Assembly (NCBI GenBank): GCA_965262915.1
Contig: OZ253564.1
Coordinates: 576,001-640,000, forward strand
Source: Candidatus Spongiisociaceae bacterium
GTDB lineage: Bacteria > Actinomycetota > Acidimicrobiia > Spongiisociales > Spongiisociaceae
DNA: 64,000 bases
Direction: 5' to 3'
The notes under the pieces were generated by a model, which worked only from the letters and a program-made list of their open reading frames with translations, had not been told where the DNA came from and ran no database searches. Below are positions 4,865-61,800 of this stretch, in pieces. Position numbers and translations under genes: made by a program. Positions within the stretch are counted from its first letter, which is position 1. Each line of letters starts with the position of its first letter.

Positions 4865-6297
4865 GGCTCATCGGATTTCAGTGGGGAGTGACCGATGGGA
4901 GTAGGTCCCAGTTGGGTTTCCCCGCGTAGAGAAGGGCGCGGATTCGGTAGTTCGCGAAGTTGCGGAACCCGAACGCTGCTCGTTTGATCCGTTTGATGAG
5001 GTTGTTGAGGGCTTCGGTGGGTCCGTTGGTTACCTTCGAGATGTGCCAGTTGGTGATCTGGGGGGTCCAGCGGGCGATGGTACGACCCAGCTTGTTGATC
5101 TCGGGTGGGCAGGATTCGTGTTGGAGGTCGTCTGCGAGCTGGAGGGTGTATCGGAGAGCAAGGACCGGACTCTCGATCCCGTAGATGCCTCGTACCGTCT
5201 CTTTCGCGTGCCAGGCTGTGCGCACTTCCCCGTAGGGGTCACCAGCATCGAGGAGACCACGCAGCCGTATTTGACCCCGGTCGCTGATCCTCTCATGCGC
5301 AGCGGTTAGGAGCCGCCGTATCCGATACAGCGGGTCATCCTTGCGGCCTCGATGCCCGAGGGTTTCGTTTTGGACTCTTCGTCGTACCTCGTCGAGACGC
5401 TGGTTGGCGAGGCGGATGACGTGGAACGGGTCCGCTACCTGCAGCGCGTGCGGCAGCACCCTGTCATACGCCTTCCGATACGAACCGGACATGTCCAACA
5501 CCGCCCAGCGGATAGCCTCACACCATTCGGTGGGTTGTGACCGGAACCAGGCTGCGGCGCTTTCTGCTGTTCTACCAGGGACTATGTCGATCAGCTGGTG
5601 GCCGCCAACGTCGACGACAGAGGTGCACCAGACTTTGGTACGCCAACGGCCCCGACGCCAGAACAACGTCTCGTCCACTCCCACAGCTTCGACGGTCCCG
5701 ACCCGATCGGTGTCTGCTTCCAGCAGCGCTTCGCCCCAGCGGCCAACCTCTTTGTTCACCGTATGCCAATCACAACCAAGTTCTGCGGCGACCTCGTCGA
5801 CCGAACGGCCCCGCCCACCCACCTGGATGGTCACCCACCGGGCCGCTCGGGATGTCAACAACGCCCGTTGGGGACCAATCTTGGGGTCTTGTTCGATGAA
5901 CGATCTGAGCGCACAGTCGGGGTTCGGACATGTCCAGCGCCGTTTCCGCCACCGCAGCCGCACAGGCCGGCCGAACGCCGGTAAATCCACCAACACAACC
6001 GTCCGATAGCCCTTCGACCACACCGACCCGCCACAGGACTCACACAACGGCCGGGGCTTGCGGGACCGGATCACCACCTCCAACGGTGCCTCCTCGCCCG
6101 GGTCGTTGATCCCTACCAGATCAACCTCACCTAGGCCTACCAACTTCTCGCACATGCGCGTAGGATCAGCTTCCACAGGGGTCCTCCTGCCTCGGATGTC
6201 ATTACCAACACCCGATTATGGAGGACCCCTCCTCACTTCTGGTGGATTCCAACTCCCCCTGGCAGATCCCCTACTCCCCACTCATTTCCGAAGAGCC
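4865..6297 (-). mobile_element. ISL3-family insertion sequence, apparently complete (1433 bp)
   Basis: Imperfect terminal IRs starting GGCTCATCGG / GGCTCTTCGG; 8-bp target duplication GATTATGC at 4857-4864 and 6298-6305. Confidence 0.93.
4878..6176 (-). CDS. ISL3-family transposase
   Basis: Zn finger (CESC..CPNPDC), GVDET, LDMS, DPFHV, TNGPTEALNNLIKRIKR..FGFRN..NYR.R. Confidence 0.95.
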   Translation of the reverse strand: MEADPTRMCEKLVGLGEVDLVGINDPGEEAPLEVVIRSRKPRPLCESCGGSVWSKGYRTVVLVDLPAFGRPVRLRWRKRRWTCPNPDCALRSFIEQDPKIGPQRALLTSRAARWVTIQVGGRGRSVDEVAAELGCDWHTVNKEVGRWGEALLEADTDRVGTVEAVGVDETLFWRRGRWRTKVWCTSVVDVGGHQLIDIVPGRTAESAAAWFRSQPTEWCEAIRWAVLDMSGSYRKAYDRVLPHALQVADPFHVIRLANQRLDEVRRRVQNETLGHRGRKDDPLYRIRRLLTAAHERISDRGQIRLRGLLDAGDPYGEVRTAWHAKETVRGIYGIESPVLALRYTLQLADDLQHESCPPEINKLGRTIARWTPQITNWHISKVTNGPTEALNNLIKRIKRAAFGFRNFANYRIRALLYAGKPNWDLLPSVTPH

Positions 6298-40682: not shown

Positions 40683-41947
<1,265 letters not shown>

Positions 41948-45987: not shown

Positions 45988-46298
45988 AGACAAAGAGATT
46001 TTATGTCTAAATGGCCTTGTCTTTTCGCCAGCAGTTTGCTGAAATAGACGGATGTACTTGGGTCGATACCCTGATGGATCTGCAGTCTTGATGTCGCCCA
46101 ACGGTTTCGGTCTGCGGCTGTTGGCTGTCGCCCGGATTCGTCTTTGGGTGAAGAGGTATAACTGGACAATTGCTGGGGTTTGTCGACGTTGGCTGCGCCT
46201 GAGGCGGCGCGCCCGCGTCGGGACCTGCGGCGCGGACTCTGCGCCCGATGGTCTTGAGGACACGCCGACGTTGCCAGAGCCGACGCGGGGGCCGGCCG

Positions 46299-46892
46299 GT
46301 GGACATCGTTGCTGATCTCGCCGTGATCGGCGCCGCCTCGGTGCTGTTGCTCAGCGGATCCTCCAAGATCGCGCGGCCTCGCCCCATCACGACCACCCTG
46401 GTGATGCTTTGGAACACCGCCACCAGACAGGCCCGGTCAGCTGCCTCGCCTCGGCTCGGGCTGATGCTGGGAGTCGGCGAGATGGGCCTCGCCGCCGTCG
46501 TTGCGACGGTGCGGTCCTGGCCGGCGGGCCTAGTCCTTGTGCTCTTCGCAGCGGGATTGGCGGCCGCGGGGGTGATGGGAGTGCTGAGCGGCGGCGAGGT
46601 ACCGTGCGCCTGCTTCGGCAAGGGCGACCGGACCCTGGGCTACGGGCACATCCTGCAGCTTCCGTTGTGGATCTTCGCAGCGTGGGCGGTGGCCCAGGGC
46701 GGAACCCTGTTCAGCGCGGGCACACGTCTCGAGCAGACGCTGGCAATGCTCGCAGTGTGCACCGCCCTCTCGACAGCGTTGCAGGTTGCGAGAGCATGGC
46801 GAGCGGTCTACCCGATCGCGCGGCAGCGCAGGAAGGGCGCGGCTGAGGCTGCGGTCCTGCCGCCGGCCGGTGCGGGGGTCTCCTCGTGGTAG
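46299..46892 (+). CDS. MauE/DoxX-family redox membrane protein
   Basis: LLLSG.SKI, GE..LA, VPCACFG (the CxCFG motif of MauE), several TM helices; start at GTG 46299 or ATG 46248. Confidence 0.8.
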   Translation: MDIVADLAVIGAASVLLLSGSSKIARPRPITTTLVMLWNTATRQARSAASPRLGLMLGVGEMGLAAVVATVRSWPAGLVLVLFAAGLAAAGVMGVLSGGEVPCACFGKGDRTLGYGHILQLPLWIFAAWAVAQGGTLFSAGTRLEQTLAMLAVCTALSTALQVARAWRAVYPIARQRRKGAAEAAVLPPAGAGVSSW

Positions 46893-47506
46893 TCGCCGCC
46901 CTGATCATCTCGATTGCGGCCCTGCTCCTGAGCGGGTTCGTCGCGCTGGCTGTAATGGAGGTGGTCGCCGAGAGGCCAGCCGGTCCGAGACAGCCTGCCG
47001 AGGACTCCATCGAGGAGTTCGAGCTGTCACCGGCAGTGGCCGGGACCTCGGCCAGCTCGCACGGGCTGCCCGATCGGATCGACGGCGCCTCCGCACACCT
47101 TGTGCTCGTGATCTCGCCTCGGTGCTCGATGTGCAAGAAGCTGGCCCTCTCCTTCGACGGGAAGATTCCAGCCCATCTCACGGTCGTGGTGGCCGCGACG
47201 GACGCCGTCCGCATGAGGAAATGGGCCGCCGAGAGCGGGCTGTCGCTGCGGAGGACGGTGTTCGACGACGACATGACCATCGTGAACGGGCTCGAGGTGT
47301 CCTCTAGCCCGACAGTCGTGGGGTTCGTCAACGGCACGGTCGCGTTCGTCGCAGGAGTTGGCGGCCGCCGAGCTCTGGATGACCTGCTGGAGCAACGCAT
47401 TGCGATTCTCGAGCAGGTTCCGAGCGTCGACGCCCCCGAGGAGACAGATGCCGCCGTGTCGGATACCGGCGACGGCTCGCGGGGGAGCCGGACCCGTGGT
47501 CCTTGA
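46886..47506 (+). CDS. Membrane-anchored thioredoxin-like protein (MauD/TlpA-like)
   Basis: N-terminal TM helix, LVLVISPRCSMCKKL (CxxC), V.SSP.VV cis-Pro loop. Confidence 0.78.
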   Translation: MVVAALIISIAALLLSGFVALAVMEVVAERPAGPRQPAEDSIEEFELSPAVAGTSASSHGLPDRIDGASAHLVLVISPRCSMCKKLALSFDGKIPAHLTVVVAATDAVRMRKWAAESGLSLRRTVFDDDMTIVNGLEVSSSPTVVGFVNGTVAFVAGVGGRRALDDLLEQRIAILEQVPSVDAPEETDAAVSDTGDGSRGSRTRGP

Positions 47507-48194
47507 GTTCGTGTCGGCTGTCGGTCTGTTCCTGGGCGGATATCTGCAGAGACACAGTCCTTGAGGCGTCTCCTTCGTGGGCCAGTTCGGCCCCACGTTT
47601 GCGACGAGCAGAGGCATTCGACGGGTGTCTCGCAGCGGTGTCTACGTGCTGGGCGCCCTGCTGTCCTCGGGGATGTTCATTCTCGCGGTCGACATGACAG
47701 CGGGGCACTTCTCTCGAGATGTCCTAGGCGGCGACCGGTCCCGGGCCGCGGCGCTCGTCCTGGTGAGCGTGCTGATCCTCATCGACGCGATCCGGCTGTG
47801 GGGCGGACGCTCCACCTCCTTCGGACCGAACCGGCAGACCCCCTACGCCTGGCGAGCGAGAGGCTGGCCGGGCGTTCTCGGCTGGGGCCTCGACACCGGG
47901 GTTCCGCTCACGACGATTAGGACATCGTCGCTTCCCGTGCTGGGCGTGGTGCTGGTGGCCACCGGACACGGCGGCCCGCTGCACGGCCTGGCCTACGGCT
48001 CGGGCCTGGCGGTCGGCCTTCTCGGCGGAGTGGTTGCGATGTCGCCGCGCGGCGACATCCGAAGCGTGATGGCCGAACTGCTGCGGCGCCGCCGCGCTCT
48101 GAGGCCGGTCATGGTGACGGTGGCTCCGTCCGCGCTGATGATCGGCGTGCTCGTGACCGCCGCGCTGGCGGCGCCCGGCACGGCGGCACCATGA
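47496..48194 (+). CDS. MauF/CcdA-like multi-pass membrane protein with in-frame UGA at codon 23 (putative selenocysteine)
   Basis: RBS GGGGGAG and GTG 47496; reads MVLEFVSAVGLFLGGYLQRHSP[TGA]GVSFVGQF... in one frame; RQTP..W...GWGLDTG..TT; hairpin at 47577-47596. Confidence 0.7.
47565..47606 (+). promoter_or_regulatory. Candidate bacterial SECIS element
   Basis: Upper stem GTGGGCC/GGCCCCAC (one bulge), loop AGTTC 19 nt after the UGA, lower stem CGTC/GACG. Confidence 0.6.
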
Positions 48195-51100
48195 GGCGGG
48201 CTGGGATCCGCGCGGGGCCCGCGGCAGGGGTTGCCGGGCGAGTCCGCCGGGTGTTGTCCGGGCTGGTGCTTGCCGCGGTGGTCGCAGCCGGGATCGGACC
48301 CGGGGGGTCTTGGGCTCAAGTGGGCGACGGCGACGATGAGGGTCGTCATGACGGCTTCGATGATGTGGTCTCGGGTGTGCACGCGTCGGCGATTGATGCT
48401 CTGGCCCAGTTGGGGGTCTTCGAGGGCACCGAGTGCGGCGAGGGGCTGTTCTGTCCCGACGAGCCCATCCGGCGCTGGGTGATGGCGGTGTGGCTGGTGC
48501 GCGTCCTCGAGACGCCGTTGCCCGAGGCCGGCGCGTCGCGCTTCTCTGACGTGGACCCCCAGCAGTGGTGGTCGCGCCATGTGGAGGCCCTGGCCGATCT
48601 GGAGATCACCGCAGGCTGCTCGCGATCGCCGGCCCGGTACTGCCCCGACGAGGTGGTCAGCCGGGCCCAGATGGCGTCGTTCCTGGCCCGGGCGTTCCAC
48701 TTGGAGCCCTCCGAGGAGGGTGAGCGCTTCAGCGACGTGTCGGGCGGCGTGCATGCGGCGAACATCGACGCGCTGGCCGCGAGCGGTATCACCGCAGGCT
48801 GCGCTACCGACCCGGCGCGCTATTGCCCGACCAGGGCCACCACCCGCGCCCAGATGGCATCGTTCCTCAAACGGGCCCGCACCATGTTCATAGGCCCCTG
48901 CCCGACCGAGGCCACAGACGACACCGGCACCACCACACCAAGCACCGGGTCGCCCCCAAGCACCGGGTCGCCCCCAAGCACCGGGTCGCCCCCAAGCACC
49001 GGGTCGCCCCCAAGCACCGGGTCGCCCCCAAGCACCGGGTCGCCCCCAAGCACCGGGTCGCCCCCAAGCACCGGGTCGCCCCCAAGCACCAGGCCTGGTG
49101 TGGTGGTGCCGGGTGCGCCACGCGGTGTGGTGGTGGCGCCGGATGATGGGGAATTGTTGGTGTCCTGGTCGGCGCCGAGCGAGCTGGTGGGCGTGTCGTC
49201 GGTGACCTATGTGGTGGAGTGGCGCTTGGACACCCAGCCCTTTGGCGGGGGGCGCCGGTTGTTGGGTGTGTCGGAGGAGTCCGCGACGATCTCGGGGTTG
49301 GTGAACGGCGCGATGTACGCCGTGCGTGTGTCGGCGGTCTTGTCGGGAAGCCGGGGGCCATGGTCCGAGCCGGTGCCGGGCGCGCCCGGGCGGGTGCTGG
49401 GCGCGCCCCGTGAACTCGTGACCGAGAGGGGCGATCGGGAGTTGGGGTTGTCTTGGGAGCCGCCGGGTGATCCGGGAGGCTTGGAGCCGGGAGACTTCCT
49501 CGCGCCTGAGTACTATGTCGTGCAGTGGGCCGTGGAGGGCGAGTCCTACAGCCTGGACCGCCTGCTCGAGGTGACGGAGACCTCCGCGACGATCACAGGG
49601 CTGGACAACGGCACCCTCTACAGAGTGCGGGTCGCCGCGGTGCGGGTCGTCGCGGTGCCCGTTGCGAGCCCGGAGCTGTGGTCGGAGGCCACTGGCGTGC
49701 CTGCGGTCCCGCCGGACGCGCCCAGCGGCCTGATGGCCGCGGCCGGCGATCAACAGCTGATGCTGTCGTGGGTGTCGGGCGAGTCGGGAGGCTTGCCGGT
49801 AACCGAGCAGCGGCTGCAGTGGCGCTCGAACTCGCAGTTCTTCAGCGAGGACCGGCAACTCGTCATCGGCGACGACACCTCCGCGACGATCACAGGGCTG
49901 GACAACGGCACCCGCTATTGGGTGCGGGTGGCCGCGGTGAGCGGTGCCGGGGTCTCGGACTGGTCCCCTCATGCGTCGGGCCGCCCCGCGACGCGGCCGG
50001 GGGCGCCCGGCGGTCTGGAGGCGACCCGGGACAACCAGTCCTTGGTGCTGTCCTGGGACCGGCCGGCGGACAGCGGCGGGGCGGTGTCGTTGAGCTATGT
50101 GGTGCAGTGGCGCTCGGACGCCCAGTCCTTCAGTGCGGCACGCGAACTGGAGGCGGCGGACACGTTCGCGACGGTGACCTCGCTGGTGAACGGCACGGTC
50201 CACTGGGTGCGTGTCGCGGCCGTCAACGACGACGCGGACGCGGGCCGGGGGGCATGGTCCGAGCCGGTGTCGCGCACCCCGGCCACGAGGCCCGGGGCGC
50301 CACGGCGTGTGGCGGCGACTCGCGGCGACGGGTCTTTGGCTGTGACCTGGGCTGCGCCGGCCGAGTCGGGCGGCGCAGCGGTGGAGGGCTATGTGGTGCA
50401 GTGGCGCTCGGACGCCCAGTCCTTCAGCACGGCCCGCCAGCGGACCACCACTTCGACGTCGGCGACCGTGCCTGGGCTGGTGAACGGCACCACCTACACG
50501 GTGCGGGTCGCCGCGGTCAACAACGTCGGCGCCGGGGCGTGGTCCGAGCCGGTGTCGCGCACCCCGGCCACGAGGCCCGGGGCGCCACGGCGTGTGGCGG
50601 CGACTCGCGGCGACGGGTCTTTGGCTGTGACCTGGGCTGCGCCGGCCGAGTCGGGCGGCGCAGCGGTGGAGGGCTATGTGGTGCAGTGGCATGCCAGCGG
50701 CCAGTCCTTCAGCACGGCCCGCCAGCGGACCACCACTTCGATGTCGGCGACCGTGCCTGGGCTGGTGAACGGCACCGCCTACTGGGTGCGGGTCGCCGCG
50801 GTCAACAACGTCGGCGCCGGGGCGTGGTCCGAGCCGGTGTCGCGCACCCCGGCGACGAGGCCGGGGGCGCCGGTGATCGAAGCGGTCGACGGGGGCAGCG
50901 GCCGGCTCGTGGTTCGCTGGGCCGCGCCCGCGAACGGCGGGTTTCCGGTGAGGAGCTACCAGCTTCAGTGGAAAACTGACAGCCAGACCTTCAGCACGGC
51001 CCGCCAGCGGACCACCACTTCGACGTCGGCGACCGTGCCTGGGCTGGTGAACGGCACCGCCTACTGGGTGCGGGTCGCCGCGGTCAACAACGTCGGCGCG

Positions 51101-54100
51101 GGGGCGTGGTCCGAGCCGGTGTCGGGCATCCCGGCGTCGGCGCCGGGGGCGCCACGCGACCTGGTCGTGACACCCGGCAACGGCCAGCTCGGACTGTCCT
51201 GGCAGCCGCCCGGCGACACCGGCGACGTCGCGGTCGAGTACGTGGTGCAGTGGCGCTCGGGATCCGAGCAATACAGCTCGGCCCGCAGCCAGACCACCGG
51301 CGAGGACTACGCCACGGTCACGGGGCTGGCCAACGGCACCGCCTACTGGGTGCAGGTCACCGCGAACAGCTCCGCGGGCGCGGGGGGCTCCACGGAGGCC
51401 ACCAACGTCGTTCCACGCACCACCCCGTCGGCGCCGCTGCGCCTGGAGGCCACCGTCGGCGACGGCTCACTTGCCCTGCAATGGCAGCCGCCGTCCAGCG
51501 ACGGCGGCGACAGCGTCAGCGGCTACATCGTCCAGTGGAGGGCCGACGGCGAGGACTACGCCACGACCCGCCAACTCGATGCGGCGGGCACGTCCGCGGC
51601 GATAACCGGGCTGGCCAACGGCACCCCCCACACCGTTCGGGTCGCCGCGGTCAACGCGGCGGGCGCCGGGGCATGGTCTACTGAGGCCACGAAGACCCCC
51701 GCAGGCGTGCCGGACGCGCCCCGCGAGGTCACCGCCGCGAGCGGCGACCGGGCCCTGGACGTGTCCTGGGAGCCACCCCCGAACAACGGCTCAGAGATCA
51801 AGCACTATGTGGTCCAATGGAAGGCGGGCGGCGACTACAGCACGGCCCGCCAGCGGACCACCACTTCGACGTCGGCGACCGTGCCTGGGCTGGTGAACGG
51901 CACCGCCTACTGGGTGCGGGTCGCCGCGGTCAACAACGTCGGCGCCGGGGCGTGGTCCGAGCCGGTGTCGCGCACCCCGGCGACGAGGCCGGGGGCGCCG
52001 GTGATCGAAGCGGTCGACGGGGGCAGCGGCCGGCTCGTGGTTCGCTGGGCCGCGCCCGCGAACGGCGGGTCTCCGGTGAGGAGCTACCAGCTTCAGTGGA
52101 AAACTGACAGCCAGACCTTCAGCACGGCCCGCCAGCGGACCACCACTTCGACGTCGGCGACCGTGCCTGGGCTGGTGAACGGCACCGCCTACTGGGTGCG
52201 GGTCGCCGCGGTCAACAACGTCGGCGCGGGGGCGTGGTCCGAGCCGGTGTCGGGCATCCCGGCGTCGGCGCCGGGGGCGCCACGCGACCTGGTCGTGACA
52301 CCCGGCAACGGCCAGCTCGGACTGTCCTGGCAGCCGCCCGGCGACACCGGCGACGTCGCGGTCGAGTACGTGGTGCAGTGGCGCTCGGGATCCGAGCAAT
52401 ACAGCTCGGCCCGCAGCCAGACCACCGGCGAGGACTACGCCACGGTCACGGGGCTGGCCAACGGCACCGCCTACTGGGTGCAGGTCACCGCGAACAGCTC
52501 CGCGGGCGCGGGGGGCTCCACGGAGGCCACCAACGTCGTTCCACGCACCACCCCGTCGGCGCCGCTGCGCCTGGAGGCCACCGTCGGCGACGGCTCACTT
52601 GCCCTGCAATGGCAGCCGCCGTCCAGCGACGGCGGCGACAGCGTCAGCGGCTACATCGTCCAGTGGAGGGCCGACGGCGAGGACTACGCCACGACCCGCC
52701 AACTCGATGCGGCGGGCACGTCCGCGGCGATAACCGGGCTGGCCAACGGCACCCCCCACACCGTTCGGGTCGCCGCGGTCAACGCGGCGGGCGCCGGGGC
52801 ATGGTCTACTGAGGCCACGAAGACCCCCGCAGGCGTGCCGGACGCGCCCCGCGAGGTCACCGCCGCGAGCGGCGACCGGGCCCTGGACGTGTCCTGGGAG
52901 CCACCCCCGAACAACGGCTCAGAGATCAAGCACTATGTGGTCCAATGGAAGGCGGGCGGCGACTACAGCACGGCCCGCCAGCTGGAGGCGGCGGGCAACA
53001 CGGCGACGGTGACCGCTCTGGTGAACGGCACCGCCTACTGGGTGCGGGTCGCCGCGGTCAACAACGTCGGCGCCGGGCCGTGGTCCACCGAGGCCACGAA
53101 GACCGCCGCCACCGTGCCGAGCGCGCCCCGCAACCTGACAGTCGAACGCCGCAACTCGGCCCTGGCCGCGACGTGGACCGCGCCCGCCTCAACCGGCGGC
53201 CTGGCGATCGAGGAGTACCAGATTCAGTGGACGACCGACCCCAGCGACTACGGACCGGACAAGGAGGGCACCGTGACAGGCACGACGGCGACGCTCCCCT
53301 TCCTGGTCAACGGCACCGAATACATGGTGCGGGTCGCGGCGGTCAACGGCATCGGCGCCGGGGCATGGTCCACCCAGGAGTCAGGCACTCCCTCCCCTCC
53401 CCCGACGGTGCCGGGGCGGCCCGAGATCGACGCGGTGGACGCTGCGGACCGCCGGCTGGTGGTGCGCTGGAGCCCGCCCGCGAACGACGGCGGCGACGAC
53501 ATCACCGGCTACATAGTGCGCTGGCGCACCCAACTCGGCTCCTACAACGCCGCCAACACGCACCCGGGGATCGGCGCGTCGGTATCGAGCGACACGATCG
53601 ACGAGCTGGACAAGAACACCCGGTACTGGGTACAGGTTGCCGCGGTCAACGGCATCGGCGCCGGGCGGTGGTCCGACGCTGTGTCGGCCACCATCCCGAT
53701 GACCGCGCCGGGCGCGCCTCTCGGCCTGGCGGTCGCTGGAGGCGACGCCGAGCTCCAGCTGTCATGGAGGCAGCCCCACGACACCGGAGGCGCCCAGCCC
53801 CTCACCTACGTCGTGCAATGGCGCTCCGGCGACCAGCAATACGACACGACACGCCAACAGACGACCGTCTCGACGTCAGCGACGATCACGGGGCTCGACA
53901 ACGGCACCCGATACTGGGTGAAGGTCACCGCGACCAACGCCGAGGGGTCCACACCCGGCGTCGAACGCGACGGCACCCCGCTGACCGGGCCCGGCCCACC
54001 CACGATGGTCGAGTTCACAAGCGACCCCATGGCGCCGGGCCGGCTGGTGCTGTCGTGGGCCGCTCCCGACGACAACGGCGGAACCGCCCTCACCGGATAC

Positions 54101-56704
54101 ATGGTGCGCTGGAGAGTCCACGGCGAGCGCGACCACGAAGAGGATCGTGTGGGCGCCGCGAGCCTCAGCCACCGGATCGACGGGCTGGTCAGCGGCACCA
54201 GGTACTGGGCACAGGTCCGCGCCTTCAACCGGGTCGGCAACGGGCCGTGGTCAGACCTCCTGTCCACGGTGCCGCTCGCCGTGCCGGGCGCGCCCCGAAC
54301 CGTCGCAGCAGAAGCCCGCGACGCGGGTCTCGGAGTGACCTGGCAGGCTCCTGCCAGCGACGGCGGCGACCCGATCACCGAATACAAGATCCAATGGAAA
54401 ACCACCTCCGGCGCGTTCGGCGCGGCCGCCGCCGTGGACGCCGCCACACACCTCCATGAGATCACCGCGCTCACCAACAACACCCGCTACGTCGTGCAGG
54501 TCGTGGCGGTAAACTCCCAAGGCGACGGCAGCGCCGCCCAGATCCACGCCACGCCGCTGCCGCCCACTGTCCCCGGACCGCCCATCATCGCCGCCGTGGT
54601 GCCTCGCGAGGGGGGAGTCACGGTCCAGTGGCTGCCGCCTCCCGACGACGGCAGAGCGCCCGTGAGCTCCTACCGGCTGAGCTGGCCCGGCGGCCACGCC
54701 GAGATCACCGACCCGACCGACCTCAGCCATGACATCGTCGGACTGGACTTCGCCCTCGACTCCGTGATCAGGATCTCCGCGGTCAACTCCCAGGGCGAGG
54801 GAACCCCCGCCGCGGTCAGGGCCCGCTCCAATCAGGTCCCGGGCCCGCCGCAACGCGTGCTCATCGCTGAGGACGACGGCAGCCTCGTCGTGCGGTGGAA
54901 ACCGCCCGGCGTCGTGTCGGCGTTCGTCGCCTCATACAGCGGGTTCGTGGTCACCGAGTACCTGGTGCAGTGGAAGACAAGCGGCCAGGAATACAGCACC
55001 GACCGCCAGGCCACGGTCACACCGGACTCCATCCCGGACAACTCCTACGGGGTCTACACGATCACGGGCCTCAACAACGGCTCGGACTACTCGGTGCGCG
55101 TCATCGCGGTCAACGAGGGCCGCCGGGGGCCGCCCGGGGAGGTGTCGGGTCGGCCGAGGCCGGCAGTGGAGGGCGCACCGCCTCGTGTCGTCGCCTACAA
55201 CTACGGCGAACGCACGGGTGAACTCTGGGTGGATTGGTGGCCGGCCATACGAGAACACGACGGGGTGCAGGCCTCCATCTACGAGCTGCGTTGGGGGCCT
55301 GCCGGCCAGGCGAGCAGTCCCTCCGGATACCCGAGGATCCCCGTGGGGCCCCGCGTCATCGACGTCGGCTCTGACGCAGTGGGCACCGTGCTCCGCGTGC
55401 GGGTGAGAGCAGTCTATGGTGGCACGTTCGGGCCGTGGGCCGAGACGCTGGTCGCGGTGGCGGCGCCTCCGACCATCCCGCAGCGACTCACTGCGACCCC
55501 CGGCGACGGCAGTGCATCGTTGCAGTGGGATCCGCCCGAGTCCGACAGGGGGTCGCCGATCTCTGCGTATGTGGTGATCGTGAACGAGGTCGACGACATC
55601 GAAGACCAGGCGTCCGTCGTCGTGACCGGCGAGAGCTACGAGATGACCGGGCTTGAGAACGGCCGGACATACACGCTTCATGTAGCGGCGCTCAACAACG
55701 TGGGCATCGGATATCGCAATGAAGTGATGGTGACGCCCAACGGCGAGATCGACGGGCCGAGCGTGCCCGGCGCGCCGGAGGACGTGGTGGTGGTGCCCGG
55801 CGACGGTTCGCTGGCGGTGTCGTGGGCGGCGCCGGCCGATCACGGCGGGGCCGCCGCCAGCGCGTACCAGGTGAGCTGGGAGGCGGCCGGGCAGCCCGGC
55901 ACAGCCCAGCAGGCCGATGTGGGCGCGGCGTTGAGCCATGTGATCACTGGCCTGGTCAACGGCACCGACTATGCGGTGGAGGTGACCGCAGCCAACTCCG
56001 CCGGGACGGGGCAGGCAGCGGCGGTGACAGCTGCGCCCGCGGCGGCGGGGGCGCAGCCGGGCGCGCCGGGCGGGATCGTGGTGGTGCCCGGCGACGGCAT
56101 GCTGTTGGTGTCATGGCATGCGGCGACCGACAGCACCGGGGCCGCCGCCAGCAGGTACGAGGTGAGCTGGGAGGCGGCCGGGCAGCCCGGCACAGCCCAG
56201 CAGGCCGATGTGGGCGCGGCGTTGAGCCATGTGATCACTGGCCTGGTCAACGGCACCGACTATGTGGTGGAGGTGACCGCAGCCAACTCCGCCGGCAAGG
56301 GACCGGCCATAGTGACGCGGGCGGTGCCCACCGGGGTGCCGAGCGCGCCCCGCGGAGTGGTCGCCGCGCGCAGCACGGTCGTGGCCGGCACGGCCAGGAT
56401 CCTGCTGAACTGGCTTCCGCCCGACGACAACGGCGGCACCAAGATCACCGCCTACCGGGTGTCATGGCGCGCCGACGGCGAGAGCTACGACGACTCGCAG
56501 TGCTCGCACCGCCGAGCCGATACCACCGCCACGGGCCACCCCATCGGCGACTTGGACGCCGACACCACTTACCACGTTCGGGTGGCCGCCATCAACGCCG
56601 CGGGGCCCGGCCCCGCAACCGAGATAACGATCCCGCCCGGGAACACTGCGGCAGCTGACAGGAGGCACACAGAATGGGCATCGCCAGACACTCGGAACAG
56701 ATGA
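48191..56704 (+). CDS. Giant secreted surface protein: signal peptide, three SLH-like repeats, Ser/Thr/Pro linker, 26 fibronectin type III domains
   Basis: F.DV...H...I.ALA..G(I/V)..GC...YCP....RAQMASFL repeats; PGAP...L.VSW..P...Y.VQW...GL.NGT.Y.VRVAAVN..G.G.WS repeats. Confidence 0.93.
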   Translation: MRRAGIRAGPAAGVAGRVRRVLSGLVLAAVVAAGIGPGGSWAQVGDGDDEGRHDGFDDVVSGVHASAIDALAQLGVFEGTECGEGLFCPDEPIRRWVMAVWLVRVLETPLPEAGASRFSDVDPQQWWSRHVEALADLEITAGCSRSPARYCPDEVVSRAQMASFLARAFHLEPSEEGERFSDVSGGVHAANIDALAASGITAGCATDPARYCPTRATTRAQMASFLKRARTMFIGPCPTEATDDTGTTTPSTGSPPSTGSPPSTGSPPSTGSPPSTGSPPSTGSPPSTGSPPSTGSPPSTRPGVVVPGAPRGVVVAPDDGELLVSWSAPSELVGVSSVTYVVEWRLDTQPFGGGRRLLGVSEESATISGLVNGAMYAVRVSAVLSGSRGPWSEPVPGAPGRVLGAPRELVTERGDRELGLSWEPPGDPGGLEPGDFLAPEYYVVQWAVEGESYSLDRLLEVTETSATITGLDNGTLYRVRVAAVRVVAVPVASPELWSEATGVPAVPPDAPSGLMAAAGDQQLMLSWVSGESGGLPVTEQRLQWRSNSQFFSEDRQLVIGDDTSATITGLDNGTRYWVRVAAVSGAGVSDWSPHASGRPATRPGAPGGLEATRDNQSLVLSWDRPADSGGAVSLSYVVQWRSDAQSFSAARELEAADTFATVTSLVNGTVHWVRVAAVNDDADAGRGAWSEPVSRTPATRPGAPRRVAATRGDGSLAVTWAAPAESGGAAVEGYVVQWRSDAQSFSTARQRTTTSTSATVPGLVNGTTYTVRVAAVNNVGAGAWSEPVSRTPATRPGAPRRVAATRGDGSLAVTWAAPAESGGAAVEGYVVQWHASGQSFSTARQRTTTSMSATVPGLVNGTAYWVRVAAVNNVGAGAWSEPVSRTPATRPGAPVIEAVDGGSGRLVVRWAAPANGGFPVRSYQLQWKTDSQTFSTARQRTTTSTSATVPGLVNGTAYWVRVAAVNNVGAGAWSEPVSGIPASAPGAPRDLVVTPGNGQLGLSWQPPGDTGDVAVEYVVQWRSGSEQYSSARSQTTGEDYATVTGLANGTAYWVQVTANSSAGAGGSTEATNVVPRTTPSAPLRLEATVGDGSLALQWQPPSSDGGDSVSGYIVQWRADGEDYATTRQLDAAGTSAAITGLANGTPHTVRVAAVNAAGAGAWSTEATKTPAGVPDAPREVTAASGDRALDVSWEPPPNNGSEIKHYVVQWKAGGDYSTARQRTTTSTSATVPGLVNGTAYWVRVAAVNNVGAGAWSEPVSRTPATRPGAPVIEAVDGGSGRLVVRWAAPANGGSPVRSYQLQWKTDSQTFSTARQRTTTSTSATVPGLVNGTAYWVRVAAVNNVGAGAWSEPVSGIPASAPGAPRDLVVTPGNGQLGLSWQPPGDTGDVAVEYVVQWRSGSEQYSSARSQTTGEDYATVTGLANGTAYWVQVTANSSAGAGGSTEATNVVPRTTPSAPLRLEATVGDGSLALQWQPPSSDGGDSVSGYIVQWRADGEDYATTRQLDAAGTSAAITGLANGTPHTVRVAAVNAAGAGAWSTEATKTPAGVPDAPREVTAASGDRALDVSWEPPPNNGSEIKHYVVQWKAGGDYSTARQLEAAGNTATVTALVNGTAYWVRVAAVNNVGAGPWSTEATKTAATVPSAPRNLTVERRNSALAATWTAPASTGGLAIEEYQIQWTTDPSDYGPDKEGTVTGTTATLPFLVNGTEYMVRVAAVNGIGAGAWSTQESGTPSPPPTVPGRPEIDAVDAADRRLVVRWSPPANDGGDDITGYIVRWRTQLGSYNAANTHPGIGASVSSDTIDELDKNTRYWVQVAAVNGIGAGRWSDAVSATIPMTAPGAPLGLAVAGGDAELQLSWRQPHDTGGAQPLTYVVQWRSGDQQYDTTRQQTTVSTSATITGLDNGTRYWVKVTATNAEGSTPGVERDGTPLTGPGPPTMVEFTSDPMAPGRLVLSWAAPDDNGGTALTGYMVRWRVHGERDHEEDRVGAASLSHRIDGLVSGTRYWAQVRAFNRVGNGPWSDLLSTVPLAVPGAPRTVAAEARDAGLGVTWQAPASDGGDPITEYKIQWKTTSGAFGAAAAVDAATHLHEITALTNNTRYVVQVVAVNSQGDGSAAQIHATPLPPTVPGPPIIAAVVPREGGVTVQWLPPPDDGRAPVSSYRLSWPGGHAEITDPTDLSHDIVGLDFALDSVIRISAVNSQGEGTPAAVRARSNQVPGPPQRVLIAEDDGSLVVRWKPPGVVSAFVASYSGFVVTEYLVQWKTSGQEYSTDRQATVTPDSIPDNSYGVYTITGLNNGSDYSVRVIAVNEGRRGPPGEVSGRPRPAVEGAPPRVVAYNYGERTGELWVDWWPAIREHDGVQASIYELRWGPAGQASSPSGYPRIPVGPRVIDVGSDAVGTVLRVRVRAVYGGTFGPWAETLVAVAAPPTIPQRLTATPGDGSASLQWDPPESDRGSPISAYVVIVNEVDDIEDQASVVVTGESYEMTGLENGRTYTLHVAALNNVGIGYRNEVMVTPNGEIDGPSVPGAPEDVVVVPGDGSLAVSWAAPADHGGAAASAYQVSWEAAGQPGTAQQADVGAALSHVITGLVNGTDYAVEVTAANSAGTGQAAAVTAAPAAAGAQPGAPGGIVVVPGDGMLLVSWHAATDSTGAAASRYEVSWEAAGQPGTAQQADVGAALSHVITGLVNGTDYVVEVTAANSAGKGPAIVTRAVPTGVPSAPRGVVAARSTVVAGTARILLNWLPPDDNGGTKITAYRVSWRADGESYDDSQCSHRRADTTATGHPIGDLDADTTYHVRVAAINAAGPGPATEITIPPGNTAAADRRHTEWASPDTRNR
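48941..49090 (+). repeat. 18-bp coding tandem repeat x8.3 (STGSPP linker)
   Basis: Perfect AGCACCGGGTCGCCCCCA units. Confidence 0.97.
50711..52982 (+). repeat. 1128-bp near-perfect tandem duplication (4 FN3 domains per unit)
   Basis: Identical shadow ORFs at 51106/52234 and 51061/52189, offset 1128; two substitutions seen. Confidence 0.92.
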
Positions 56705-57102
56705 CAGGACGCGCCAAGCACACAGCCGACAGGACGCGCCGAGCATGGCCGACAGGACGCGCCAAGCACACAGCCGACCGGCCCCACCGACCGGACCGTC
56801 GAGCGTTCCTGCGTTGCGCCAGCGGGGCCGCGCTGTCGATTCTGGCGGTGGGAGCGCGAGCCGCACTGCATCCCCGGCCCGCGTCGGCAGGCCCCGCGGC
56901 GTCGTGTTGCGGTCTCGCGCGAGACGCCAATGCGTGGTGCCCGTACTTCTGCGGAGAGATCGGCGGAGGATTCAGCTGTTGGGCATGCAACAACGGGGCG
57001 TGCCTGTGCTGTGAGTGCATCCCCGGCGGGCTGGCCAGCTGCTTCTATTTCTTTGCGAGCTGCTCCTACAGCACTGGGTGCTGCGAGAGGGCGGCCGATT
57101 AG
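56701..57102 (+). CDS. Tat-exported cysteine-rich miniprotein (14 Cys in a predicted 70-aa mature part)
   Basis: ATGA overlap with the FN3 gene; DRRAFL twin-arginine motif, hydrophobic stretch, PASA cleavage site; SCC...WCPYFC...CWAC....CLCCEC...C...C...GCC. Confidence 0.85.
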   Translation: MTGRAKHTADRTRRAWPTGRAKHTADRPHRPDRRAFLRCASGAALSILAVGARAALHPRPASAGPAASCCGLARDANAWCPYFCGEIGGGFSCWACNNGACLCCECIPGGLASCFYFFASCSYSTGCCERAAD

Positions 57103-57188: not shown

Positions 57189-57599
57189 ATGACTGACTCG
57201 AACAAGACCACCCGTCCAAGGCCCGGGAGCCTCGGCTCCCAAGAGTTCGTGGACTTCCTGGCGCAAGTGCGCCGCGACCCGCGCCGGACACCGGCGCCCT
57301 CGCCCATCAACGCCGCCGCCGTCGAGTTGGGCACCTACGAGTCCGACGCTGGCGAGGGCCATGTATGGGTGCGCATAGACAGCACCGGCGAGACCGTGCG
57401 AGCCGCGCTCGACGGCTTCCTGCCCGAGTATCGCCTCGAGCGCGGTGACGAGCTGGGAGCAACAGTTGTGGACGGCGCCTGGCGGACGATCCCCACCGTG
57501 AAGTACACAATCAGGCACTCCGACCGGATCGATTTCTGGACCAAGAACCGCCGGACCGGGGGCTTTCGCCAGCTCGCCACGAGCAGCTACGAGCAGTAG
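57189..57599 (+). CDS. Hypothetical protein (136 aa), probable last gene of the operon
   Basis: ATG after GGGG; GC3-biased; beta-rich-looking core; no family recognised. Confidence 0.65.
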   Translation: MTDSNKTTRPRPGSLGSQEFVDFLAQVRRDPRRTPAPSPINAAAVELGTYESDAGEGHVWVRIDSTGETVRAALDGFLPEYRLERGDELGATVVDGAWRTIPTVKYTIRHSDRIDFWTKNRRTGGFRQLATSSYEQ

Positions 57600-57609
57600 C
57601 GACCAGAAG

Positions 57610-58764
57610 CGTTTACACCACCACAACCGCCCGAGATCAAGCAAGCTGACCGGGCCTGGTTCCGGGTGGCGAAGCTGGTCCGGTCTAGGAGTTCGGTCTC
57701 GAGGGTGGCGAAGAAGGACTCGGCGACCGCGTTGTCGTAGGCGTCGCCTCGGCGGCCAGGTCTGTGTCCCGCCCGTTGAGGATCCGTAGACGGGCTAGGA
57801 GCTCGTCGGTGATAGTGGTCCACATGAGCCGATCCGCGTTGCGCCACGCGTAGTCGGCCAGCACCCGGGCATCTTTGGGGTCGGTCTTGGCCGCTCCTGC
57901 GTAGAGCTCCGCGGCTCGGCGCATCGCCAGGCCGGTGACATAAGCCACCGGCATCTGACACTCGGCGGCCACCCCCAAGGCCAGCACAGCCGCAGACGAG
58001 GTCGAGTCAACCACCAGCGGCGGGCTGCCATGACCTGCTGCGTCGTCGATCAACCGCCGGATAGCCCCCTCGTCGTTGGGAACCGGACGGGCGAACAACG
58101 GCTCGCCTCGAGCCGACACCGCACAGGCATAATGCTTGCCTTTGGCGACATCAACACCGACGAACACCTCAGGGGCGGGCTGTGGGCAATCACCCACTCG
58201 GCAGGTCCCTTCCGGTCGGGAATACGTATGCCGATAACTCAGGACACCAACGCCTCAACCACATCTGCGAACCAGCCCCTCACTTCGGTGCATGTGATGG
58301 CGATCAGAGGTCGCAGGCACCCAACCACGGCGGGTGGAATCACACCCTAGGCCATCTCGGTGACAGGGGAATTAAGCCCAGCCCGCCGCGGCGAGTAACC
58401 GGCCCCGATGCTCACACACCAGAGCTACCCAACAAGGTAAAGGGGAATTTCAATGATCGCCATCACCCGTCTCCAGCTCGGCAATCCGACGACGAGCGGC
58501 CCAAAGTTCCCCTTGTTCCGTCGAGGTCGCACCGGGCTTCAGGCCAAGGTCAACAACGTCCTGGCGTCGCCAGTTGTAAATCGTCTGCCTCGGACACACC
58601 AAGATCGACAGACAAGGACGCCACCGACCTTCCGGCCGCTAACAGATCCAGAACTCTGCGACGGAACTCGGGTGGATATCGATACGGCACCAAGACCCCT
58701 CCTTTTGCGGGTCAGCACACCACCAATTTCAAATATCCCGACTCCACGAAAGTGGGTCACCATC
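57610..58764 (-). mobile_element. Nested remnant: IS3 element (left end 58764, frameshifted orfA 58450-58691, integrase tail 57640-57745) containing a truncated IS110 (transposase N-terminus 57745-58197 plus upstream non-coding end)
   Basis: YPPEFRRRVLDL..QTIYNWRRQD; VFVGVDVAK...AKTDPKDA (IS110 DEDD domain); YDNAVAESFFATLETELL. Confidence 0.8.
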
Positions 58765-58824: not shown

Positions 58825-61800
58825 CTATGCCTTGTCTTTGGTGATGGTGATCGTGTCGCCGCTGGGGGTTACTGATTGGACGGTGATGGTGTAGCCACCG
58901 ATGGTGACGCTCTGTCCCTGGGTGAGTATGGGGTAATCGTTTACTTGTGCGTTGCCGGTGTCACCCGCCATTTTTAGGGGGAGACGACGTGTGGCGAGGG
59001 CAGCGTCGACGGTGTACACGAGAACTCCTTCGGTCGCTAACGCGGTGTCGTAGCCGAGTTTGTGTCGGGACTCCATAACGATCGCTTTGTGTCTCGAGAT
59101 GGGTATGGCAGCCATTGCTGTGCCGGTGCCGGGGTTGGCAACGGGGCTGAGGGTCACGGTCGCTTCGGTTCCGGTCACGCAGCGAATCTGGGCGGGTTCG
59201 AGCCAGCCGAGCTGCCAGCGGCTCCAAGCCAGCATTTCTGATCCCCCGGTGTAGGTGGAGTACGGGGCGCTGTCGCGGGTGAGGAAGCGAGCTTGCAGTC
59301 CCATGAGACCGAACCCTGTGGTTACCCATTTCTGACCCTCGGGAGGGTTGGGTAGCTTGTGGTCGGAGGTTGGGTAGAGATCCAAGAGTCCGAGATTGTG
59401 GGCGAGTTCGTGCGCTGCCGTGTGACCCCACGAGGTTGGCTTCCCAGGTTCTGGCCTCGGTTGGGAGTTGATAAGGGTGATGCTCTGGATGGTTCCTTCG
59501 TCTGTGCGGACTTTGTGTAATCCTGCTATTGCTGACCAGAAGTGGGAACCGGGCATCACGACCATCATGATGTCGTGTCCGGCAAAGTCGAGGTCGGGGT
59601 CGGCTAACCTGGCGGCCTCGTCGACGACGTACGTTTCGGGCTCCGTAGTACCTCCGCCAACGTAGTGGTCATAGTTGTGTTCGGGTCTGAGCCAGCGGTG
59701 CAGGGGGTTGAACTCGACATCTAGTTTCCCGTAGCTGGCCGCCTCGAGGTATTCCTCTGCGTAGGGGAGGCCGAGCGTGGCCTCGTCATGACTGGTATGG
59801 GCTGCCTCCTTGTCGGGGAAGTCCACGAAGATAACCGCCACCCGCAGGAGACCGGTGGAGGTTGGGGCCCATCCGGGCAGAGGAAACCCTGCCGTGGCAC
59901 CTGAGGTGCCCACCGGTTGGCACATGCCCGGGTCCGGTCCGTCGGCCCAGACAGCATATCGAACATTCGCCGGCACAGAAACAACCGGTGCTCGACCCCA
60001 GCAGACGACAGCACCATCGGGGCGTAGCCCACAAGAGTACCCATCGGAATACCCGCTCTTTTTGACTGAGACCGCTTCGAACCGTCCCGTGGGAGGCTGA
60101 GCCTGCCCGACCAAGTTGCCCCAGCAGATAACAGCACCACCGGTACGTAGCCCACAGGAATACCGATCACCGGCCGCCACTGCAATAAACATCCCATCCG
60201 GCGGGGTGGCCTCACCTGAACCGTTGGCACCCCAACAAGCCACCGTACCGTCGAGACGCAGCCCACAAGAATGCGAACCACCAGCCGAAACAGCAGTAAA
60301 CCGACCATCCGGCGGGGTGGCCTGACCCAAACCCTTCGACCCCCAGCAGGCCACCGTACCGTCGACGCGTACCCCACAAGAATGCGAACCACCAGCCGCT
60401 ACCGCGGTGAACGTCCCATCCGGCGGGGTGGCCTGACCCGAACCGTTGTACCCCCAGCAGGCGACGGTGCCGTCGAGGCGTACCCCACATGAATGCCCAC
60501 TACCGGCCGAAACAGAAGCGAACCGACCGTCCGGCGGGGTGGCCTGACCCAAACCGTTGTACCCCCAGCAGGCCACCGTACCGTCGACGCGTACCCCACA
60601 AGAGTGCGAACCACCAGCCGCGACTGCGGTGAACGTCCCATCCGGCGGGGTGGCCTGACCCGAACCGTTGGCACCCCAGCAGGCCACCGTACCGTCGACG
60701 CGTACCCCACATGAATGCAAATTACCGACAGAACTGGTGACGAACACACCGTCGGGCGGTTCCGGCTCACCGGACCAGTCGAAACCCCAGCACACAACAC
60801 TTCCACCGGCGCGTACCCCACATGAATGCAAATTACCGGCCGAAACAGCAGTAAACCGACCGTCCGGCGGGTCGGCCTGACCGTTTTCGTTAGCCCCCCA
60901 GCACACAACCGTCCCGTCGGTACGCAGCCCGCACATATGCCGGCTAGTGCCCGAGACAGTGCTGAACCGTCCCTCGGGTGGGTCGAACAGACCCCAGCAC
61001 TCAACACCGGCATCGGTGCGCAGCCCGCACGAATGGGCATTGCCCGTGGCAACGTCGGTGAACTTGCCCTCCGGCGGGTCGGCCTGACCGTTTTCGTTAG
61101 CCCCCCAGCACACAACCGTCCCGTCCGTGCGTATCCCACACGTATGAACGACACTCGTGGCAACGTCGGTGAACTTGCCCTCCGGCGGGTCGGCCTGACC
61201 GTTTTCGTTAGCCCCCCAGCAGACAACCGTCCCGTCCGTGCGTATCCCACACGTGTAATATCTACCCGCCGAAACGGAGACGAAGGTCCCCTCCGGGACA
61301 CCGGTCCGAGAAAATGGGGATCCCCAGCAGGCAACAGTACCGTCGGTGCGTATCCCGCACGAATGGTCCCAGCCCGACGAGATGACGGTGAACTCACCTT
61401 GCGGCGGTTCGGCCTGACCCTGAGTGTTCTCACCCCAACAAACGACCGTGCCGTCGGCGAGCAGCCCACACGAATGAAAACCACCCGCAGCCACCTCGAC
61501 GAACCGTTCCCCCGACGGCTCGAGGTCAAGTGTGAGTGCCCGGGTAAGGAATGTGGCCATCTGCGCTCGGGTGGTGTCCCGCCCCGGGCAGTAGCGGAGG
61601 GGTTCTGTCCTACACCCTGCCGTGACACCCGAAGCGGCCAATGCATCAATATTCGCCGCGTGGACACCGCCCTCAACATCTGCGAACCCCGCCGACGGTG
61701 CCGAAGACAGCCCGAACGCGCGGACCAGAAACGACGCCATCCGAGCACGATTAACCGTCTCGGTAGGACAAAACCTCGCTGGCTTCGTCGCGCAACCCGC

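Follow-up and report, generated by a model that had tools for sequence, protein, structure and literature searches.

A cysteine-rich miniprotein of a rare, previously undescribed family, encoded with MauE and a giant surface protein in a genome of the Acidimicrobiia

The Cys-rich miniprotein and its operon

The subject of this analysis is a gene for a small, cysteine-rich protein of Candidatus Spongiisociaceae bacterium (Actinomycetota; Acidimicrobiia), together with the operon that it belongs to. Both lie in a stretch of 64,000 nucleotides (nt), referred to as the window, which covers positions 576,001 to 640,000 of the forward strand of contig OZ253564.1 (NCBI GenBank assembly GCA_965262915.1); all coordinates below are those of the window. 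The gene product is a putatively secreted Cys-rich miniprotein of a rare family that had not been described before. The gene and the parts of its product are as follows (aa, amino acids; ORF, open reading frame).

56660..56665, + strand: Shine-Dalgarno sequence AGGAGG, 8 nt 5' of ATG 56674, read directly from the sequence
56674..57102, + strand: precursor of the Cys-rich miniprotein, an open ORF of 142 aa that shares the last 31 nt of the upstream giant gene
56797..56814, + strand: twin-arginine motif RRAFLR, residues 42-47, with R42 and R43 conserved in at least 90% of the rows of the family alignment
56890..57099, + strand: mature domain of 70 aa after ASA/G, with 14 Cys and with W31 and E42 invariant

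The precursor comprises a basic n-region, the sequence DRRAFLR, a hydrophobic stretch (highest 15-residue Kyte-Doolittle mean 1.74, at FLRCASGAALSILAV), the site ASA/G and a 70-residue mature part with Cys at positions 6, 7, 17, 21, 30, 33, 38, 40, 41, 43, 51, 58, 64 and 65 and Trp at 16 and 31. The last 70 residues and the Cys positions agree exactly with a preliminary description of the locus, made from the DNA letters and their translations, which had proposed a mature peptide of this length with 14 Cys and two Trp behind a twin-arginine leader. GC content in the precursor frame peaks at codon position 3 (0.76), as it does in the neighboring genes. RRxFLR and AxA are conserved in at least 90% of the rows of the alignment, the Pfam model TAT_signal matches 8 of its 37 members (best E 0.0039) and the genome encodes TatC (204.8 bits); a twin-arginine motif, a hydrophobic region, an AxA site and TatC are thus all present, and export by the twin-arginine translocation (Tat) system is predicted. 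ATG 56674 is the likelier start codon, because AGGAGG lies 8 nt upstream of it and because a relative in the protein databases (P0001, see below) is called at the same start. The translationally coupled start assumed previously, ATG 56701, does overlap the TGA of the upstream gene and is in the same frame, but it lacks a comparable ribosome-binding site.

Five further genes of the operon surround the precursor gene.

46248..46892, + strand: MauE-family membrane protein, 214 aa (PF07291, 30.1 bits against a cut-off of 27, E 6.9e-7), with Cys120 and Cys122
46886..47506, + strand: membrane-anchored CxxC protein, 206 aa, containing SPRCSMCKK; its first 7 nt lie within the MauE gene
47577..48194, + strand: memb3, a membrane protein specific to this gene cluster, 205 aa, about four hydrophobic segments, no Cys; its stop codon overlaps the ATG of the giant gene
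48191..56704, + strand: giant surface protein, 2837 aa, with signal peptide, SLH domain (E 7.6e-9), PSTGSP linker and 25 fn3 stretches (Pfam)
57189..57599, + strand: cytoplasmic partner, 136 aa, with an N-terminal helix and a beta-barrel resembling the oligonucleotide/oligosaccharide-binding (OB) fold, no signal peptide

All of these genes lie on one strand in a translationally coupled operon, and their stops and starts overlap (46886/46892, 48191/48194 and 56674/56704) or lie close together. The companions upstream of the giant gene were sought there after homologous loci had shown the same set.

The product of the first gene is identified by its sequence as MauE, a putative DsbB-like disulfide generator, because it scores above the family cut-off and carries the CXC-F-G motif (CAC-FG, in VPCACFGKGDR); a scan of the genome gave 33.2 bits for PF07291, and this is the only match above the cut-off in the genome. 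According to the accessible text of a preprint on this family, MauE replaces DsbB in E. coli and needs a CXC motif that is usually followed by F-G, acts as an oxidase and not as a reductase, and mostly occurs without MauA, only 10.2% of MauE-bearing species having both (bioRxiv 10.64898/2026.03.05.709764). The MauE of the window shares with the general MauE of that preprint, as far as its accessible text goes, a CXC motif and then F-G within a loop of a protein that spans the membrane several times; in most species, MauE is unlinked to MauA.

The second gene encodes a protein with a single N-terminal hydrophobic helix and no Cys other than those at 80 and 83. All 11 aligned homologues retain S-P-x-C-x-x-C and, further on, S-S-P, and the Pfam models Thioredoxin and Thioredoxin_2 match weakly (E 0.16 and 0.26), which suggests a carrier of the thioredoxin fold resembling DsbA or MauD. 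The third product, memb3, has no Pfam match at E<=1 and a best NCBIfam match at E 0.14; none of its 47 homologues has a Pfam domain or an informative name. Cys residues of the giant protein are paired in the SLH region, and two others are located after that region (the lone Cys 237) and in the last FN3 domain (Cys 2771).

A rare family with a conserved gene set and localized variation

Relatives of the miniprotein are few. A word-indexed search of 5.8 billion clustered proteins found three: P0001, which is 99% identical and has the same leader, and two proteins encoded on one 168-kb contig. An exhaustive HMMER search, which covered 1.84 billion cluster representatives, gave 22 at E<=0.001, and half of these, 11, also lie at E<=1e-10. 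These relatives and the genes read from retrieved loci make up a family alignment of 37 rows, in which positions are given in mature numbering. Conservation of the Cys spacing in homologues, a test set beforehand, was found throughout: 11 Cys are invariant in 37/37 rows, among them C7, C17, C21, C33, C38, C40, C43, C51, C58 and C65, and W31 and E42 are invariant as well. C30 and C41 are replaced jointly in 9/37 rows, by bulky aromatic or aliphatic residues, and singly in none; because they are always lost together, they probably form a disulfide pair. W31 is kept in every row, whereas in 8/37 rows Y, S, G or A stands in place of W16.

No Pfam or NCBIfam family accounts for this framework. The miniprotein has no Pfam match at E<=10, and Pfam and NCBIfam searches with both it and the partner returned nothing useful (a single row, CU044_5270, at E 4.7); the best match of the family profile among PDB sequences, RNase 4 (E 0.35), is taken as chance. 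An AlphaFold2 (AF2) model of the mature peptide, with a predicted local distance difference test (pLDDT) of 84.8 and a predicted template modeling (pTM) score of 0.71, consists of a helix (17-23) and three strands. Fold searches with this model found no Foldseek match at E<=0.001 (best 1.2) and no VIA match at Z>=5 (best 3.5, half of a glyoxalase domain), a null result from which it follows neither that the fold is new nor that a known one is absent. The knottin- or defensin-like fold that had been proposed is not supported by these searches, in which a confident model (pLDDT 84.8) gave no PDB match. Knottins, CS-alpha/beta defensins, granulins and conotoxins are similar in their small size and dense Cys framework, and conotoxins also in combining a conserved signal with a hypervariable mature part; the helix and three-strand model, however, matched none of them, and the present peptide is bacterial, predicted to be exported by Tat and linked to MauE. 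No account of the family, or of the module of six genes, turned up in a search of the literature. Should the prediction of its fold hold, the scaffold would be a new, compact framework rich in disulfides and of interest to peptide engineers.

The distribution of the family is patchy. Among 401 genomes of the order, clear matches to the peptide (E<=1.7e-15) occur in four; the partner occurs in the same four, and this MauE in those four and, as a partial copy, in one more (5/401). The other 33 of 37 order-wide peptide matches (E 1.9e-4 to 0.01, many with internal stops) were treated as noise and not individually examined; one of them lies in an unpublished genome, on which nothing stated here depends. 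Because its patchy distribution matches that of the peptide and partner, this MauE appears to be a private copy that belongs to the module and not the housekeeping oxidase of the order. The general MauE is described, in the accessible text of the preprint, as a generalist (bioRxiv 10.64898/2026.03.05.709764); the subtype in the window differs in that it tracks the peptide and the partner (5/401 against 4/401). In searches of plasmids, tblastn with the mature peptide gave two matches at E 2-4, taken as chance, and no MauE was found.

Further loci, designated by L and a number, were found with a degenerate DNA pattern built on the conserved core. At one position this pattern demands C-N, and it therefore misses members such as that of L026, a locus that was added to the comparison. 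Among species-representative genomes, 11 of 19 pattern stretches are real, all of them in Acidimicrobiia metagenome-assembled genomes, and eight (L031, L034, L035, L038, L040, L041, L045, and L046) are chance pattern matches in short or unrelated frames; among JGI metagenomes, one stretch of 11 is real (L059). With duplicates counted once, 13 neighborhoods were compared (the window, L026, L029, L030, L032, L033, L036, L037, L039, L043, L044, L047, and L059). The partner gene is present in 13/13, a giant with SLH and FN3 domains in 12/13, and MauE, the CxxC protein and memb3 in 11/13 each, with the gene order shuffled between neighborhoods; L047 is the third set of giant, partner and peptide in a genome whose other module genes lie elsewhere on the same contig. 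The module thereby defines four uncharacterized protein families that travel together: the miniprotein, the OB-fold binder, memb3, and the CxxC protein.

The module occurs in two subtypes. In the window, in one of the two sets of L029 (set a), in L028 and in L036, an additional segment, TRPRxxSLGSxEFLxFL, extends the N-terminus of the partner, and loops are longer in the peptides of L036 and L028; both subtypes are found in a single genome, at a distance of 7 kb. At 3639-5268 of the divergent metagenomic locus L059, the cluster abuts two ORFs that by eye resemble an extracytoplasmic function (ECF) sigma factor and an anti-sigma factor, at the place where the giant would be.

Where the module varies is best seen in one genome that carries three triads of giant, partner and peptide. 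Between the triads, the partner genes are identical at 400-401 of 408 nt and the signal-peptide regions at 115-120 of 120-123 nt, whereas the mature regions agree at only 160-172 of 198 nt and 41-46 of 66 aa, with every Cys kept. The giants are mostly 90-100% identical per window of 60 alignment columns, with 42-49 of 57 in the last such window, which corresponds to the C-terminal FN3 domain and in which a loop bounded by Cys differs completely. Variation thus sits in two places, the far end of the fiber and the mature miniprotein, and the partner gene between them stays conserved; either the two variable parts are in contact or both are turned to the outside. Animal venoms are known for such a pattern, in which the signal is conserved and the mature part is hypervariable while the Cys scaffold stays fixed; it is rare in bacteria.

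Among the full-length giants listed, those of L026, L028, L029, L036, L037, L043, and L047 have one unpaired Cys just behind the SLH region and another within a distal FN3 domain, and some giants add a pair of Cys that bounds a variable loop in the last FN3 domain. The giant of the window (48191-56704) has about eight PSTGSP units after the SLH region and a long, nearly identical internal duplication in which runs of several FN3 domains recur almost verbatim, for example the block starting with PVIEAVDGGSGRLVVRW.

Partner binding, maturation and possible roles

The partner has no family in Pfam and none in NCBIfam at E<=10, and its highest 15-residue hydropathy is 0.49. Its model (pLDDT 79.5) combines an N-terminal helix with an OB-type beta-barrel, for which the fold matches are aIF1A (Z 8.3, root-mean-square deviation 3.4, 75 residues aligned), IF1 (TM 0.72, root-mean-square deviation 2.6), the N-domain of PAN (Z 7.4) and HypC (Z 6.4); these Z values are middling and indicate a common fold and nothing beyond it. 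Searches of BFVD gave only weak OB- or IF1-like rows (E>=1.4e-3).

Binding of the partner to the mature domain is predicted. A complex of the two proteins was modeled with an ipSAE of 0.72 (0.32, 0.74, and 0.72 in the separate runs) against 0.00 for the best of three controls. Of 157 solved complexes, 116 reach that mark, as do 2 of 215 mismatched pairs; these figures serve as a rough guide here, since the alignments were our own. At least 52% of the contacts are common to the runs, and the partner pLDDT is at least 70. The predicted interface consists of peptide residues 78-136, in the mature domain, and no leader residue (36-77) is among those listed for it; its tightest contacts pair the invariant W103/A104/C105 strand with partner residues 101-105, beside the invariant P102. 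We know of no similar solved complex. Because the partner is nearly invariant between the triads, a generic chaperone is favored over a cognate immunity protein.

Private chaperones and hitchhiking partners of Tat substrates (TorD, NapD, HybE, and HypC; HybO-HybC) offer a general parallel, in that a small protein without a signal is encoded next to a Tat substrate to which it is predicted to bind, and HypC-like OB-fold chaperones are among the weak fold matches of the partner (Z 6.4). The partner differs from TorD, NapD, HybE, and HypC in that its predicted interface, as listed, involves the mature domain only and no signal-peptide residues, in that its substrate has no known cofactor and in that it has no sequence relation to the chaperone families.

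The reading that is probably correct, though far from certain, is that the locus produces a disulfide-locked secreted or surface miniprotein of an undescribed family, which is diversifying and is served by a dedicated maturation system. The precursor would be translated from ATG 56674 and directed by its twin-arginine leader to the Tat translocase. In the cytoplasm, the OB-fold partner would hold the reduced Cys-rich domain, either as a private chaperone that gives it a folded, export-competent shape or as a protein exported with it. Once the protein has passed through Tat, the leader would be cleaved after ASA. Outside the membrane, the CxxC protein, as a DsbA/MauD-like carrier, would form up to seven disulfides and would be re-oxidized by MauE, which would be DsbB-like and linked to quinone. 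The finished domain may then be an outward-facing, fast-diversifying module associated with the C-terminal end of the giant SLH-anchored FN3 fiber, where its most likely role would be that of a tip-bound ligand or effector serving adhesion, recognition or antagonism.

Several observations weigh against parts of this reading. A domain with seven disulfides would be an odd Tat substrate, and C64 is absent in 8/37 members, which leaves them with an odd number of Cys (13 or 11), so that a picture in which all Cys form disulfides does not account for those members. The thioredoxin fold of the CxxC protein is drawn from sub-threshold matches: in NCBIfam, it matches pdi_dom alone (E 0.058), with no MauD model listed, and a profile of its 11 aligned homologues matches PDI and thioredoxin at E 0.11-0.97, confined to the surroundings of the CxxC. 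One of the three complex predictions scored only 0.32, and almost all of the mature domain belongs to the interface, even at positions that differ among paralogues with nearly identical partners, so that a generic chaperone fits less neatly. The gene set is incomplete in L030, which has only a MauE fragment and no match to the CxxC protein or memb3, in L036, which has no MauE match, and in L059, which lacks the giant, though its contig stops 53 nt past the partner. The link to the fiber tip is suggested by gene adjacency and parallel variability, and by these two alone.

The reading nonetheless bears on several questions. It offers a concrete natural substrate for a private oxidative-folding pair of the MauE type outside methylamine metabolism, as MauE gains recognition as an analog of DsbB; it raises for Tat biology the question of why and how a domain that requires disulfides uses a pathway for folded proteins; and it may explain how the little-known Acidimicrobiia, which are largely known from metagenome-assembled genomes, decorate giant SLH/FN3 surface fibers. 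The OB-fold binder, memb3, the link to a giant fiber and the unusual pattern of variation are the new components, and the oxidative folding of a small, Cys-rich exported protein is known. A bolder version, which is offered tentatively and is doubtful as a whole, is a new actinobacterial surface appendage: an SLH-anchored fiber of about 100 nm (as estimated from about 25 FN3 domains), whose last, variable FN3 domain would carry the separately exported hypervariable miniprotein, the latter being exported as a preformed Tat hitchhiking heterodimer with the OB-fold protein, locked by a private MauE-thioredoxin pair and perhaps linked covalently, through the odd Cys that some members have, to the distal lone Cys of the giant. 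If this were true, the tip pair would diversify in the manner of venom peptides or phage receptor-binding proteins.

Among the alternatives, a secreted toxin or bacteriocin with its immunity protein stands best, and even so is unlikely. The Cys-rich domain would be an effector, either antimicrobial or delivered by contact; the OB-fold protein would neutralize it inside the producer until export, as barstar neutralizes barnase, and the giant fiber would present the effector to its targets. Venom peptides likewise combine a conserved signal with a hypervariable mature region, here with the framework of Cys kept; the mature domain is predicted to have a binder in the cytoplasm; the module directly follows a giant surface protein whose C-terminal domain varies most, which recalls polymorphic toxin loci; and the distribution (4/401 genomes) is patchy and looks mobile. 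Cognate immunity proteins are expected to co-vary with their toxins, however, and it is for this reason that the three paralogous partners, which are 98% identical in DNA while the peptides differ at 20-25 of 66 residues, count against an immunity role. The predicted interface, moreover, is centered on the invariant W31 strand and the region of the invariant P102 of the partner, and no toxin family or fold was matched in the libraries searched, which did not include PADLOC and PHROGs.

A divergent MauA-like small subunit is decidedly improbable. Such a protein would carry a cofactor similar to tryptophan tryptophylquinone (TTQ) or cysteine tryptophylquinone (CTQ), or another cross-link, and would form a small extracytoplasmic redox enzyme with the OB-fold protein. 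The preliminary description had considered a MauA-derived miniprotein and suggested testing whether its two Trp are juxtaposed as in TTQ. The surroundings of the gene agree with that idea, as the operon holds MauE and, in the place of MauD, a CxxC protein, which are neighbors of the kind seen in mau clusters; the leader is long and of the Tat type, the invariant Trp and Glu are flanked by Cys, and the Cys count is odd in 8/37 members. A language-model feature search (Atlas), the one hint of kinship, also placed a PF02975 (MauA) cluster at rank 14 with a score of 0.93 (seven matches in the set), with 161 of 256 features shared, a number below the 170 given as typical for true family members. 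The sequence and fold searches gave no such agreement. PF02975 matches 0/37 family members at E<=10, gives nothing at E<=1 in a six-frame search of the genome and has no match over the cut-off across 401 genomes of the phylum. Methylamine dehydrogenase (MADH) light chain was absent from the profile search of the PDB, whose best match was RNase 4 as noted above, and from the rows listed by Foldseek or VIA-align. W31 alone is conserved, the second Trp being replaced in 8/37 rows, so that the TTQ-like pair does not stand. In the 96%-complete genome, no match was found to MauG (PF03150, at E<=0.01; a control matched in 4 of 14 genomes) or to MauB (PF06433), the latter being weak evidence, as its control matched in no genome either, and the operon contains no radical-SAM or flavoprotein gene. 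MauA, at about 130 aa, is also longer than the 70-aa peptide. The low share of MauE-bearing species that also have MauA (10.2% in the accessible text of the preprint, bioRxiv 10.64898/2026.03.05.709764) points the same way. Judged by its sequence, then, the peptide is not a detectable MauA or subunit of methylamine dehydrogenase.

The comparison with mau clusters remains instructive, in that these likewise place a small, Cys-rich extracytoplasmic protein with a long leader of the twin-arginine type beside MauE and CxxC thioredoxin-like maturation proteins; the OB-fold protein, memb3, and the giant SLH/FN3 protein, on the other hand, are no part of them. A second parallel comes from decRiPPter, a survey of peptides that are made on ribosomes and modified after translation (RiPPs), which in the part of the report available lists candidate families of Streptomyces with mauE, one of them also with mauD, as untested candidates (PMC7794033). 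Those candidates also place MauE genes beside short precursors with at least eight Cys, outside mau clusters; the Cys-rich Streptomyces precursor shown there (61 aa), however, lacks a leader of the twin-arginine type and spaces its Cys differently, and no OB-fold partner, memb3 or SLH/FN3 giant is reported in the available part (PMC7794033). As to RiPPs in general, a Cys-rich precursor beside MauE is present in the window, but it is led by a Tat signal that includes a site for signal peptidase, and the operon contains no tailoring enzyme besides the redox pair. The system would function in the manner of the MauA-MauE-MauD part of mau clusters and resembles the MauE-linked precursors of decRiPPter, but it is a member of neither, because the sequence and Trp tests for MauA failed and because the Streptomyces precursor lacks a Tat leader and has another Cys pattern.

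Binding of a metal or cluster is very improbable. The Cys would hold Fe-S, Zn or Cu while still in the cytoplasm; this would account for the choice of Tat, a route that commonly exports cofactor-loaded proteins, and the neighboring redox proteins would keep the thiols reduced. Eleven invariant Cys in about 60 residues would suit such a role, and OB-fold metallochaperones are among the weak matches of the partner (CusF, E 0.018; HypC, Z 6.4). The paired loss of C30 and C41 to bulky residues, however, fits a disulfide and not a four-ligand site, no ferredoxin, HiPIP, metallothionein or Csp family was matched, and MauE, in the accessible text of the preprint, is an oxidase and not a reductase (bioRxiv 10.64898/2026.03.05.709764).

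Leader repeats and flanking sequence

The n-region of the leader contains a set of short DNA repeats.

56703..56775, + strand: three tandem units of 25, 23, and 25 nt with the core GACAGGACGCGCC, inside the leader n-region, read as TGRAKHTA / DRTRRAWP / TGRAKHTA

That the leader holds three units of 23-25 bp, as reported previously, was confirmed by Tandem Repeats Finder (TRF; period 25, 3.1 copies, score 117, at 56703-56778) and by counting the 13-mer GACAGGACGCGCC, which occurs exactly three times in the 64 kb (at 56703, 56728, and 56751) against 0.42 expected, a count reached by 1 of 100 shuffles. Units 1 and 3 are identical (25/25), and a fourth, degenerate copy overlaps the Shine-Dalgarno region. 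The statement that no unit length is a multiple of 3 is correct for the 25, 23, and 25 nt; a larger repeat is nonetheless in frame, with 40 nt at 90% identity and a spacing of 48 nt, or 16 codons. In its two copies, the first 25 nt are identical, the next 15 nt differ at four positions and divergence increases beyond. A simple 48-nt tandem duplication was considered as the history of the repeats and fits poorly.

The length of the repeats was compared among four metagenome runs from four studies, in contigs and not in raw reads, from which rare length variants drop out. Contigs of three runs (X2, X4, and X7) span 56400 to at least 57359 with 0 gaps; those of the fourth (X8) break inside the repeats, with extra short contigs there, and are left as ambiguous, and no joints were reported in any of the four runs. 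One contig of X8 also has an extra G behind 56649, among the giant's final codons and just upstream of the ribosome-binding site of the peptide; this insertion would alter the C-terminal tail of the giant. The phase-variable gene suggested earlier, in which gain or loss of one 23-25-nt unit would toggle translation of the precursor or swap a long for a short leader, is the least probable of all the readings and finds little in the comparison: the unit lengths, the 25/25 identity of units 1 and 3, which permits recombination, ATG 56745 in unit 2, which opens a frame MADRTR similar to MADR N-termini inside P0002 and P0003 and by frame arithmetic joins the frame of the Tat motif if 25 nt are lost, and the broken contigs of X8 speak for it, whereas the gap-free contigs of the other three studies without joints in any run, the same leader in the 99% identical P0001 (three member sequences, two contigs), the presence of just three long units, which are not a slippage-prone short repeat, the in-frame period of 48 nt and the in-frame leader duplications of relatives, which point to tolerated duplication and not to switching, speak against it.

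Leader duplications of other kinds occur in the family. P0003 has an in-frame repeat of 16 residues that includes RRAFLR, and the leaders of L036 (9695-10123) and P0017 have a second, degenerate RRPF motif ahead of the real one; because these members carry other in-frame duplications, the n-region appears to tolerate them. The repeats of the window are a local duplication just before the Tat motif with no demonstrated role, and are the least important part of the locus.

Downstream, the operon ends at remnants of mobile elements.

57590..58197, - strand: transposase debris ending the operon, with an rve_3 fragment and an IS110 DEDD N-terminal fragment (Pfam)

Truncated transposase genes occupy 57590-58700, straight after the operon, with fragments of rve_3, IS110 DEDD N-terminal and HTH_Tnp_1. 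From 57618 onward, metagenome contigs pile up and diverge, with many loose ends and much higher depth, as at an element present in multiple copies. Upstream of the operon, two overlapping ORFs at 40919-41913 (- strand) resemble OrfA and OrfB of the IS3 family, by eye from their translations. A second large surface protein of 1284 aa is encoded at 58825-62679 (- strand); it has an SLH domain and 12 RCC1 repeats, and in the translation of its C-terminal part the zinc-peptidase-like motif HELAHNLG is seen.

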